A DNA stretch of 64,000 bases from Escherichia coli (GTDB taxonomy: Bacteria > Pseudomonadota > Gammaproteobacteria > Enterobacterales > Enterobacteriaceae). Location of the stretch: the NCBI RefSeq assembly GCF_011045215.1, contig NZ_CP049201.1. One strand, 5' to 3'. The notes under the pieces are model-generated. The model was not told where the DNA came from and made no database searches. It saw nothing but the letters and a program-made list of their open reading frames with translations. The translations under genes and the position numbers were made by a program. Positions 12,911 to 36,456 of this stretch are shown here, piece after piece. Numbering within the stretch: the first letter of the stretch is position 1; each line of letters starts with the position of its first letter.

Positions 12911-15412
<2,502 letters not shown>

Positions 15413-17781: not shown

Positions 17782-18807
17782 TTAACGCACGGGCGGCGCG
17801 TACTGAATACCGCCGTTATTCCAGAGATTATTTTGCCCACGTTTAATTTTCAGCGGGCTTTCTGAACCTACGTTACGCTCAAAAATTTCCGAGTAGTTAC
17901 CCACCTGTTTGATGATGTTATAGGCCCATTTATTATCCAACTTCAGATCCTTGCCGTAATCGCCTTCTTTACCCAGCAGATGTGCCATATCAGGCGTTGC
18001 TGGATTAGCCGCTTTTTCATCGACGTTCTGGGAATTGATGCCCATCTCTTCAGCATTTAGCATGGCGAAAAGCGTCCAGCGTACAATCGAGAACCATTCA
18101 TCATCGCCACGACGAACTACCGGCCCAAGCGGTTCTTTAGAGATAACCTCCGGTAAGACAATCCATTCAGCCGGGTTGCTTAATTTGATGCGCAGGGCAT
18201 ACAGTTGGGATTGATCCGAAGCCAGCGTATCGCAGCGACCAGATTCCAGTGCCTTCGCTGATTCGTCAGAGCGATCGAAAGTCACTGGTGTGTACTTCAT
18301 ATTGTTTGCCTTGAAATAGTCGGCGACGTTGAGTTCGGTATCAGTACCCGCCTGAATACAGACGGTAGCGCCATCCAGTTCTTTCGCGCTTTTTAGCCCC
18401 GCTTTATCGTGCGTCAGGAAGCCTATGCCGTCGTAATAAGTGACGCCAGTAAATGCCATTCCCATCCCGGCATCGCGAGATGAAGTCCAGGTCGTATTAC
18501 GGGAGAGCAAATCCACCTCCCCTGACTGTAAAGCGGTGAAGCGTTCTTTTGCAGTGAGCGGGGTATATTTCACTTTCGTGTCGTCACCAAATACAGCAGC
18601 GGCAACACCACGACAAATATCAACATCAATACCTGAAAATTTACCGTCAGCATCGGCATAAGAGAACCCAGGTAATCCATCACTGATCCCGCATTGCACA
18701 AAACCTTTTTTCTGTACGGCATCAAGCGTCGCGCCAGCATGCGCCTGATTTGCAACGGCAAGCAGCACGCTGGCGGCAGCCAGTGTGGCTATCATCATCT
18801 TTTTCAT
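17782..18807 (-). CDS. yhdW: Periplasmic amino-acid-binding protein YhdW of the ABC transporter
   Basis: 341-aa ORF with N-terminal signal peptide MKKMMIATLAAASVLLAVANQAHA; solute-binding protein family 3. Confidence 0.9.
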   Translation of the reverse strand: MKKMMIATLAAASVLLAVANQAHAGATLDAVQKKGFVQCGISDGLPGFSYADADGKFSGIDVDICRGVAAAVFGDDTKVKYTPLTAKERFTALQSGEVDLLSRNTTWTSSRDAGMGMAFTGVTYYDGIGFLTHDKAGLKSAKELDGATVCIQAGTDTELNVADYFKANNMKYTPVTFDRSDESAKALESGRCDTLASDQSQLYALRIKLSNPAEWIVLPEVISKEPLGPVVRRGDDEWFSIVRWTLFAMLNAEEMGINSQNVDEKAANPATPDMAHLLGKEGDYGKDLKLDNKWAYNIIKQVGNYSEIFERNVGSESPLKIKRGQNNLWNNGGIQYAPPVR

Positions 18808-18887
18808 AATGCTTCCTGTGAGGCGAAAATTATCGTTATAGGACGTTTGGGAAACGTCTTTTACCTGTCTGTGGCCATCCTCTTATA

Positions 18888-18903
18888 AGCAAAAGTAGTG
18901 CCA
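18888..18903 (-). promoter_or_regulatory. Sigma54 (RpoN) -24/-12 promoter upstream of yhdW
   Basis: Reverse strand reads TGGCAC-TACTT-TTGCT, an exact fit to the TGGCAC-N5-TTGCW consensus, about 80 bp upstream of the yhdW ATG and oriented toward it. Confidence 0.7.
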
Positions 18904-18992
18904 GCTTTTGCGCACGATTTCGCGTCGCAATAAGCTGAGTGTAGACAGGAAATAATAAAAACAGCGCCCCGCAATGGTGCGAAAATGAAACA

Positions 18993-19011
18993 TGCGCCAC
19001 ATTTTGGCGCA
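18993..19011. promoter_or_regulatory. Palindrome TGCGCCA-N5-TGGCGCA, candidate enhancer-binding-protein site upstream of the sigma54 promoter
   Basis: Perfect 7-bp inverted repeat about 100 bp upstream of the sigma54 promoter; resembles NtrC-type half sites (TGCACC/GGTGCA) but with atypical spacing. Confidence 0.4.
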
Positions 19012-19203
19012 AAATATTTACGCGTGTTTTACTAAGCAGAATAATGATTGTTAGCGTGAGTATATTTCTGGTGGGAAGTGTGAAAATTAAATTGATGCGT
19101 TATTTCGAAAGCGGCGAAATAACGCGATATAACATGCTAAATCAGCAGGGAATTATCCAGCAGAATATAGCAATATTTTATCTTATGGAGAGATACTGTA
19201 TCG

Positions 19204-19237
19204 TTAAACAGAGCGCGGAAATCCGCGCCCTGTTCAG
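19204..19237 (-). terminator. Putative terminator downstream of yhdV
   Basis: GC-rich hairpin GCGCGG-AAAT-CCGCGC directly after the yhdV stop, followed by a weak T-rich tract on the reverse strand. Confidence 0.45.
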
Positions 19238-19459
19238 TTATTTCGACAGAGCGATGATCCCCATCGTCAGGCCAGCAACAGCTGCTGCCCCGCCAGCAAT
19301 AGCCCCAGCCGTTTCCCAGTTATCCTGAGTCGTGCCTTTCATACAGGTATTGGTGTGAACCAGACGACCCTGATCGTCATAAACCGGAACGCAGGGCGAA
19401 TCATGAGCACAGCCCGCCAGCAATGCGGTGAGCAATGCCACAGGAATTAATCTTTTCAT
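19238..19459 (-). CDS. yhdV: Small outer-membrane lipoprotein YhdV
   Basis: 73 aa, MKRLIPVALLTALLAGC lipobox signal, Gly/Ala-rich C-terminus. Confidence 0.85.
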   Translation of the reverse strand: MKRLIPVALLTALLAGCAHDSPCVPVYDDQGRLVHTNTCMKGTTQDNWETAGAIAGGAAAVAGLTMGIIALSK

Positions 19460-19677
19460 GGTGTTACCTCAGTAATAAACGCTAACGCTTAATAAGTTAA
19501 CTCTCTTATTAACGTGCTGAATGCCATTTTATCACCGGAGGTTATAAATCTTGCGGAATGAATAATGACAAATTATGTGAATTGTAAAAATAGTGAAGGG
19601 AGCGGGAACTATAGAAAGTTTTTAAAGAGTGAGAAGAAGAATATCTTATTAATTTTTATGGGTTTCACTGAGAATAA

Positions 19678-34515: not shown

Positions 34516-36456
34516 ATGAGATTAACGACGAAATTTTCGGCCTTTGTTACGCTGCTCACCGGGTTAACAATTTTTGTGACTTTGCTGGGCTGTTCGCTAA
34601 GTTTCTACAACGCCATTCAGTATAAGTTTAGTCATCGCGTTCAGGCGGTGGCGACGGCGATTGATACCCACCTTGTGTCGAATGACTTCAGCGCATTAAG
34701 GCCACAAATTACCGAATTAATGGTGTCAGCAGATATCGTTCGTGTAGACCTGCTGCATGGTGATAAACAGGTTTATACCCTGGCCAGAAATGGTAGTTAT
34801 CGTCCGGTTGGCACCAGCGATCTGTTTCGTGAACTGAGCGTTCCGTTGATAAAGCATCCGGGGATGTCGTTGCGTCTGGTTTATCAGGATCCGATGGGCA
34901 ACTATTTCCATTCGTTGATGACCACCGCGCCGCTCACGGGGGCGATTGGCTTTATCATTCTTATGCTCTTTCTGGCGGTACGCTGGTTACAACGGCAACT
35001 TGCCGGGCAAGAATTGCTGGAAACCCGGGCTACTCGTATCTTAAACGGTGAGCGTGGCTCTAATGTGTTGGGAACCATCTATGAATGGCCGCCCACAACC
35101 AGCAGTGCGCTGGATACGCTGCTTCGTGAAATTCAGAACGCACGCGAACAACACAGCCGTCTTGATACGCTGATCCGCTCTTATGCCGCACAGGACGTGA
35201 AAACCGGCCTCAATAACCGACTCTTTTTCGATAATCAGTTAGCAACGTTACTGGAAGATCAGGAGAAAGTAGGTACCCACGGGATCGTGATGATGATTCG
35301 TCTGCCGGATTTCAATATGTTGAGCGATACCTGGGGGCACAGCCAGGTTGAAGAACAGTTCTTCACTCTGACGAATCTGCTGTCGACATTTATGATGCGC
35401 TACCCTGGCGCACTGCTGGCGCGTTACCACCGCAGTGATTTTGCTGCGCTGTTACCGCACCGGACGTTAAAAGAGGCAGAGAGCATCGCCGGTCAGTTAA
35501 TCAAAGCCGTCGATACCTTGCCGAACAATAAAATGCTCGATCGCGACGATATGATCCACATTGGTATCTGCGCCTGGCGTAGTGGTCAGGATACCGAGCA
35601 GGTAATGGAACATGCAGAGTCTGCCACGCGTAATGCGGGATTGCAGGGCGGCAATAGCTGGGCTATTTACGATGACTCGTTGCCTGAAAAAGGACGCGGT
35701 AATGTTCGCTGGCGTACGCTTATCGAGCAAATGCTCAGTCGCGGCGGCCCGCGCCTTTATCAAAAACCGGCGGTTACTCGCGAAGGTCAGGTTCATCATC
35801 GCGAACTCATGTGCCGCATCTTTGATGGTAATGAAGAGGTTAGCTCGGCGGAGTATATGCCGATGGTCTTGCAGTTTGGCTTATCGGAAGAGTATGACCG
35901 TCTGCAAATCAGCCGTCTTATTCCACTATTGCGTTACTGGCCAGAGGAAAATCTGGCGATTCAGGTTACCGTTGAGTCGCTGATTCGCCCGCGTTTTCAG
36001 CGTTGGCTGCGCGATACGTTAATGCAATGTGAAAAATCACAACGAAAACGCATAATTATTGAACTTGCAGAGGCCGATGTAGGTCAACATATCAGTCGTT
36101 TACAACCTGTTATTCGTTTAGTGAATGCTTTAGGGGTACGGGTAGCCGTCAACCAGGCTGGTTTGACGCTGGTAAGCACCAGTTGGATCAAAGAACTTAA
36201 TGTTGAGTTACTCAAGCTCCATCCGGGGCTGGTCAGAAACATTGAGAAGCGAACGGAGAACCAGCTGCTGGTTCAAAGCCTGGTGGAAGCCTGCTCAGGG
36301 ACCAGCACCCAGGTTTACGCCACCGGTGTGCGTTCGCGAAGCGAGTGGCAGACCCTGATTCAGCGCGGTGTTACAGGCGGGCAAGGGGATTTTTTCGCGT
36401 CCTCACAGCCACTTGATACTAACGTGAAAAAATATTCACAAAGATACTCGGTTTAA
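34516..36456 (+). CDS. csrD: RNase E specificity factor CsrD (degenerate GGDEF-EAL protein)
   Basis: 646-aa ORF with N-terminal TM segments followed by GGDEF-like and EAL-like domains. Confidence 0.9.
   Translation: MRLTTKFSAFVTLLTGLTIFVTLLGCSLSFYNAIQYKFSHRVQAVATAIDTHLVSNDFSALRPQITELMVSADIVRVDLLHGDKQVYTLARNGSYRPVGTSDLFRELSVPLIKHPGMSLRLVYQDPMGNYFHSLMTTAPLTGAIGFIILMLFLAVRWLQRQLAGQELLETRATRILNGERGSNVLGTIYEWPPTTSSALDTLLREIQNAREQHSRLDTLIRSYAAQDVKTGLNNRLFFDNQLATLLEDQEKVGTHGIVMMIRLPDFNMLSDTWGHSQVEEQFFTLTNLLSTFMMRYPGALLARYHRSDFAALLPHRTLKEAESIAGQLIKAVDTLPNNKMLDRDDMIHIGICAWRSGQDTEQVMEHAESATRNAGLQGGNSWAIYDDSLPEKGRGNVRWRTLIEQMLSRGGPRLYQKPAVTREGQVHHRELMCRIFDGNEEVSSAEYMPMVLQFGLSEEYDRLQISRLIPLLRYWPEENLAIQVTVESLIRPRFQRWLRDTLMQCEKSQRKRIIIELAEADVGQHISRLQPVIRLVNALGVRVAVNQAGLTLVSTSWIKELNVELLKLHPGLVRNIEKRTENQLLVQSLVEACSGTSTQVYATGVRSRSEWQTLIQRGVTGGQGDFFASSQPLDTNVKKYSQRYSV

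Follow-up and report, generated by a model that had tools for sequence, protein, structure and literature searches.

Organization of the yhdWXYZ locus

The window, a stretch of 64,000 nucleotides of Escherichia coli DNA, carried the genes acrE-acrF-yhdV-yhdW-yhdX-yhdY-yhdZ in this order on the minus strand. The features of the locus, with their positions, are listed in Table 1. The yhdW gene was intact in this strain, whereas the annotation of K-12 MG1655 gives it as a pseudogene.

The distal end of the operon was interrupted by a 1,953-bp insertion relative to PapM-32-1 and K-12. The insertion contained Pfam matches to rve+HTH (transposase) and IstB_IS21 (IstB ATPase), was 99.9% identical to annotated IS100 copies, and was flanked at both ends by GATGGT. 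The element cut the ABC ATPase gene yhdZ just after the codons for ...SALDPEMV. A search of 5,426 complete E. coli genomes found this yhdZ–IS100 junction in none of them. The gene of the substrate-binding protein was therefore preserved in this strain although the ATPase gene was disrupted. The initial annotation had stated that the operon feeds into the insertion sequence; the geometry agreed with this statement, with IS100 lying in yhdZ in the same orientation, and read-through into the element is a prediction from that geometry. Since IS100 splits yhdZ, transcription during nitrogen starvation would enter the transposase genes of the element, and no functional transporter would result.

Table 1. 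Positions of the regulatory and coding features of the yhdW region in the window
Feature	Position	Strand	Description
σ54 (RpoN) -24/-12 element TGGCACtacttTTGCT, yhdWp	18888..18903	minus	exact consensus, conserved
Transcription start (inferred)	18877	minus	19 bp downstream of the motif centre 18896, convention of PMC4591121
Proximal NtrC-like 17-mer CGCACCATTGCGGGGCG	18981-18965	minus	centre at about -96; score 10.7, rank 3 of 63,984
Distal NtrC-like 17-mer TGCGCCAAAATGTGGCG	19011-18995	minus	centre at about -126; score 9.8, rank 10 of 63,984
Deeply conserved block TTTCCTGTCTACACTC	18952-18937	minus	between enhancer and promoter; high information content in 80 orthologues
yhdW leader, 70 nt	18807..18876	minus	conserved GCCACAGACAGG, hairpin 18858-18842, ATAACGATAA, ribosome-binding site ACAGGAAG
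yhdW, first gene of yhdWXYZ	17782..18807	minus	intact, 341 aa, periplasmic amino-acid-binding protein; ORF list and RefSeq annotation of the identical PapM-32-1 region
IS100 (IS21 family) in yhdZ	12912..14864	minus, operon orientation	istA 14778-13756, istB 13759-12977

The σ54 promoter element

The σ54 element was located between yhdV and yhdW, on the strand of yhdW and pointing at this gene. The sequence TGGCAC-TACTT-TTGCT (TGGCACTACTTTTGCT), read on the minus strand from 18903 to 18888, had zero mismatches to TGGCAC-N5-TTGCW, and its GG and GC doublets were exactly 10 nt apart, which is the spacing used as the σ54 criterion. The last base of the motif was 81 nt from the A of the yhdW ATG at 18807, and the proposal of an exact σ54 element directed toward yhdW about 80 bp from its ATG was thus confirmed. 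This was the sole match to TGGCAC-N5-TTGCW in the 64-kb window at either 0 or 1 mismatch. By chance, 0.14 matches were expected per window, and at least one match occurred in 13 of 100 shuffles. The motif by itself was therefore just mildly improbable, and the argument is carried by its position, orientation, and conservation.

For the orthologue scan, one genome per species was used, which gave 80 orthologous loci spread over about 20 genera of enterobacteria, including Escherichia, Citrobacter, Enterobacter, Kosakonia, Cedecea, Buttiauxella, Siccibacter, and Atlantibacter. The core TGGCA[CT]-N5-TTGCT was present in all 79 loci that had enough upstream sequence, at 91–115 nt before the ATG, whereas the 5-nt spacer varied. 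A fixed core with a variable spacer is the pattern expected under selection for σ54 contacts. In an alignment of the 80 unique upstream segments, which was used to define conserved blocks, the -24/-12 element itself formed one such block, and ATGGCC was conserved around the predicted start site. Within E. coli, a 601-bp query around the promoter matched 5,399 of the 5,426 complete genomes.

The start site predicted at 18877 (Table 1) gives a leader of 70 nt, in agreement with the value of 'Distance 70' given for yhdW in PMC4591121. No mapped start site, footprint, or EMSA for yhdW was found in the literature covered.

Published evidence on the identical K-12 sequence

The segment 18805–19112, in which the promoter, the full leader, and the two candidate enhancer sites all lie, was base-identical to K-12 MG1655. 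The yhdV–yhdW spacer differed from that of K-12 at five positions only, all of them at 19113–19221. Because of the identity of 18805–19112, the results published for K-12 apply directly to this strain.

Binding of σ54 has been reported from two genome-wide approaches. The σ54 ChIP-seq of Bonocora et al. (2015; PMC4591121) gave peak OS34 (FAT 29, PSSM 12.5) on CTGGCACTACTTTTGCT upstream of yhdW, with a predicted start 70 bp from the gene, and this 17-mer was identical to the sequence at yhdWp here. The same study gave the EcoCyc status of the yhdW promoter as 'Predicted' in 2015. By gSELEX, Shimada et al. (2021; PMC8743547) found a peak of the RpoN holoenzyme in the yhdV/yhdX spacer both with and without NtrC. 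For the activator, the NtrC ChIP-seq of Brown et al. (2014; PMC4066584) gave peak 17 at yhdWXYZ, with 16-fold enrichment in nitrogen-starved cells. That paper classes yhdWXYZ as a known member of the Ntr regulon on the basis of expression data from Zimmer et al. (2000), and other papers also describe the operon as NtrC-regulated. The yhdW gene is in the RegulonDB list of σ54 promoters, and a yhdWp-gfp fusion, described as a 'perfect match' σ54 promoter, was among the weakest of 12 σ54 promoters tested. The substrate and physiological role of YhdWXYZ are only now under study, in a 2026 preprint on its function in which NtrC and σ54 are not discussed.

The element is thus real, functional, strongly conserved, and already known, yhdWp being listed in both RegulonDB and EcoCyc. 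The reading of yhdWXYZ as a nitrogen-regulated, NtrC-activated σ54 operon was right and had already been established for the identical K-12 sequence. As a discovery it is of small value, since the promoter, the sigma factor, and the activator are already in databases and in several genome-wide data sets. Three points are added here. The anatomy of the enhancer is corrected to a pair of imperfect NtrC-like dyads, centred at -96 and -126. The enhancer geometry, its phasing relative to the promoter included, is shown to be maintained in about 20 genera of enterobacteria. The element is also placed in its strain context, with an intact yhdW, unlike K-12, and a yhdZ split by IS100.

The inverted repeat and the NtrC-like enhancer sites

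The inverted repeat TGCGCCAcatttTGGCGCA at 18993–19011 consisted of 7-nt arms, TGCGCCA and TGGCGCA, which were perfectly complementary and surrounded a 5-nt spacer. The spacer, AAATG on the minus strand, was not self-complementary. The initial annotation, which was right in outline and wrong in the details of the enhancer sites, had described a perfect 19-bp palindrome about 100 bp upstream of the promoter. Its location was correct, and the distance was 106 bp from centre to centre of the repeat and the -24/-12 element, but only the 7-nt arms paired and the spacer was not palindromic. In the 441 bp examined, 15 inverted repeats of at least 6 nt were found, including one longer perfect repeat of 11 nt. 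About one 7-nt inverted repeat with arms up to 40 nt apart would be expected in 441 bp (441 x 41 / 4^7 = 1.1), so the repeat as such was at chance level. Furthermore, all 7 arm pairs formed in only 2 of the 80 unique orthologous sequences.

The consensus for NtrC, TGCACCA-N3-TGGTGCA, is a dyad of 17 bp (PMC8743547). Classical sites were recovered from the parts of the K-12 genome where the NtrC ChIP peaks were strongest, and 16 of these sites were used to construct a symmetrised NtrC matrix. The recovered sites included those of glnAp2 at -140 and -108, glnL, hisJ, nac, glnH, astC, rutA, and glnK. The matrix was seeded from the consensus and partly restates it. Both 17-mers upstream of yhdW ranked within the top 10 of the 63,984 window positions. 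The best match of the whole window was TGCGCTACCCTGGCGCA at 35396–35412, with a score of 13.4.

The repeat had been taken as the binding site of an enhancer-binding protein such as NtrC. It did overlap the distal NtrC-like 17-mer; the register, however, was off by 2 bp. As an NtrC dyad, the 7-N5-7 arrangement is 2 bp too wide and does not hold: the register 18993–19009 scored 4.1, compared with 9.8 for the 17-mer shifted by 2 bp (19011–18995), and its arms were complementary in only the 2 orthologues noted above. In addition, the proximal site, located 30 bp downstream of the distal one, had been missed, and this site scored higher and was far better conserved. These results strongly indicate that the repeat represents the weaker, distal member of a two-site enhancer, and that the additional symmetry it shows in E. 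coli is incidental.

The proximal site matched 10 of the 14 consensus positions, with a conserved G in place of T at position 14. It was the top upstream match in 78 of the 80 orthologues, with scores of 7.3–17.1. The distal 17-mer lay exactly 30 bp upstream of the proximal one in 75 of the 80 orthologues, among the top three matches listed per locus, and the aligned distal 17-mers scored more weakly (0.1–11.3). One pair of NtrC-like sites spaced 20–45 bp apart was found in the window, against 0.033 expected. Across the 80 orthologues, the proximal conserved block was TTT-GCACC-N5-G-GGC at 18984–18965, of which the central 5 nt were variable, and the distal conserved block was TTTTGCnC-N5-TGTGGC--A-GTT at 19014–18989. 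Both sites departed from the consensus, with a right half that was conserved yet non-consensus.

The distance of the enhancer from the start site fell into two classes, -96/-126 in Escherichia, Citrobacter, and Cedecea, and -107/-137 in most other genera. The genera were sorted into these classes by net insertions or deletions in the stretch that separates the enhancer from the -24 element. The difference between the classes is close to one helical turn, which keeps the sites on the same face of the DNA and is consistent with selection on the phasing of enhancer and promoter.

The NtrC ChIP peak coordinates were located 83–163 bp downstream of the proximal site, and the resolution of ChIP-seq is too coarse to assign binding to particular bases. 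The same offset was observed elsewhere, at 97–177 bp from the -108 site of glnA and at 48–128 bp for glnK. As it is shared with glnA and glnK, the offset points to the peak caller or to looping and is no argument against the yhdW sites. The two 17-mers are strong candidates for the bases at which NtrC binds.

Alternative explanations for the upstream blocks

A different role for the repeat at 18993–19011 would be that of an RNA hairpin, namely an intrinsic terminator or attenuator of yhdV transcription in place of a protein site. A terminator-pattern scan flagged the repeat, with a 7-bp stem containing 5 G-C pairs, a 5-nt loop, and the following TGTTTCATTT, and flagged the neighbouring NtrC-like site as well; the E. 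coli hairpin folded at -10.8 kcal/mol, and yhdV lay upstream in 76 of the 80 loci. Because of this synteny, gene order gave no information on which of the two genes, yhdV or yhdW, the blocks belong to. However, a fully paired stem was found in just the 2 orthologues mentioned, the mean hairpin energy was -3.2 kcal/mol, and the stem showed no compensatory changes although the sequence blocks were conserved. The repeat lay 227 nt beyond the yhdV stop, whereas a longer G+C-rich hairpin, an inverted repeat with 13-nt arms, was located directly after the stop at 19207–19234 and is likely to be the yhdV terminator. The conserved columns fitted the positions of the NtrC half-sites instead. The hairpin reading, which is extremely improbable, was rejected on the ground that the stem was not kept in orthologues. 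An Rfam scan of 18600–19500 returned nothing in the promoter or the leader. A sub-threshold STnc40 match (22 bits, where the gathering score is 45; E = 0.38) was located over the 3' end of yhdV and overlapped the inverted repeat at 19207–19234.

The promoter could also be a σ54 promoter whose upstream blocks are bound mainly by a protein other than NtrC, for example Lrp or a different enhancer-binding protein, with NtrC acting indirectly or weakly. In the gSELEX study, NtrC alone gave no peak in the yhdV/yhdX spacer that reached the 40% cut-off. A Lrp ChIP signal has been reported at yhdW, which was classed as a direct Lrp-activated σ54 target. In the distal block, TGTGGC and GTT are strictly conserved even though they deviate from the NtrC consensus. 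On the other hand, NtrC was cross-linked to the region in vivo specifically during nitrogen starvation, and yhdW expression is reported to be NtrC-dependent. The two blocks were the best NtrC-matrix matches of the region in nearly every orthologue, with a spacing and a position that mirror those of footprinted NtrC enhancers. Binding of Lrp would add to the action of NtrC and not substitute for it, so that Lrp may co-regulate the operon; a main role of another protein at these blocks is very unlikely. The consensus sequences of IHF and CRP, compared by eye with the conserved blocks, gave no convincing or conserved match. A generic σ70 scan gave two matches only, each at 9 of 12 positions, at 19086–19059 (minus) and 19017–19045 (plus), a number that did not exceed the shuffle expectation.

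Comparison with known NtrC-dependent promoters

The architecture of yhdWp resembled that of glnAp2 of E. coli, which likewise has a -24/-12 promoter and a pair of NtrC dyads separated by about three helical turns, at -108 and -140 compared with -96 and -126 at yhdW. Both promoters are bound by σ54 and NtrC in vivo. The yhdW sites were weaker, with scores of 10.7 and 9.8 against 15–23 for most training sites of the matrix. Unlike glnAp2, yhdW has a conserved non-consensus right half, gave no gSELEX peak at the 40% cut-off with NtrC alone, and has a low reported output. A second, non-σ54 promoter-like element near the enhancer, which would be a further parallel, is speculative for yhdW.

The hisJ, argT, glnH, and gltI genes also belong to nitrogen-scavenging transporters with periplasmic binding proteins, use the same sigma factor and activator, and share the NtrC ChIP-seq list with yhdW (PMC4066584). 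The NtrC sites of hisJ are at -116 and -145, an architecture that parallels that of yhdW. In contrast to these genes, yhdW is a pseudogene in K-12, and in the present strain the operon is disabled downstream by IS100 in yhdZ.

Proposed mechanism

With high confidence, yhdWp is the known NtrC-activated σ54 promoter of yhdWXYZ, an operon that encodes a polar amino-acid ABC transporter. From the K-12 literature and the present analyses, the promoter is occupied by σ54 and the region by NtrC, expression depends on nitrogen and NtrC, and the promoter and both site-like blocks are conserved. The bases contacted by NtrC and the start site are predicted from the candidate sites and the motif, and DNA looping is assumed by analogy with glnAp2.

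According to this model, the σ54 holoenzyme would bind TGGCAC-N5-TTGCT (18903–18888) as a closed complex that does not initiate unaided. On nitrogen limitation, phosphorylated NtrC would bind the two imperfect 17-bp dyads (18981–18965 and 19011–18995), which are three helical turns apart. NtrC would then oligomerise at the enhancer and contact the promoter through looping of the DNA. Hydrolysis of ATP by NtrC would open the complex, and transcription would begin near 18877.

The leader and additional conserved blocks

The deeply conserved block between the enhancer and the promoter contained TCTACACT, which fitted KCTAYRCT in 74 of the 80 loci, a pattern that we take to be a σS-type extended -10 pattern. 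The CCTGTCT of the same block was the reverse complement of a conserved AGACAGG at 18870–18864, just after the inferred start, and the two were predicted to pair in a read-through RNA with a median probability of 0.97. An insulator function, in which CCTGTCT would mask the Shine-Dalgarno sequence in read-through RNA, was not supported; the pairing probability of CCTGTCT with the Shine-Dalgarno sequence was about 0, and the accessibility of the latter was equal in the read-through and σ54-initiated RNAs (0.38 vs 0.39).

The leader contained a hairpin, GACGTTT-CCC-AAACGTC, at 18858–18842 (minus), which folded in 66 of 70 orthologues with a median z of -3.3 against shuffles. Its stems varied in sequence and yet paired, as in GGCGTTT/GAACGCC, AGCGTT/AACGCT, and GACGTTC/GGACGTC. 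This pattern of variation suggests a selected RNA structure. RNAalifold on a MAFFT alignment of the leaders missed the hairpin owing to gaps that were placed inconsistently, and each orthologue was therefore folded separately.

The σS-type -10-like TCTACACT, the CCTGTCT/AGACAGG pair that brackets the promoter, and the leader hairpin with its compensatory changes may be cues to a second, undescribed control layer of the yhdW region, conserved across Enterobacteriaceae and additional to the NtrC/σ54 switch. Such a layer seems rather unlikely. If it exists, the region would have dual promoters like glnAp1/glnAp2, of which NtrC might repress one and activate the other, and the extra features could determine the level of expression under basal conditions or in stationary phase, or deal with transcripts that read through from yhdV.

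In the same leader, ATAACGATAA at 18839–18830 (minus) was nearly invariant across 64 aligned orthologues.
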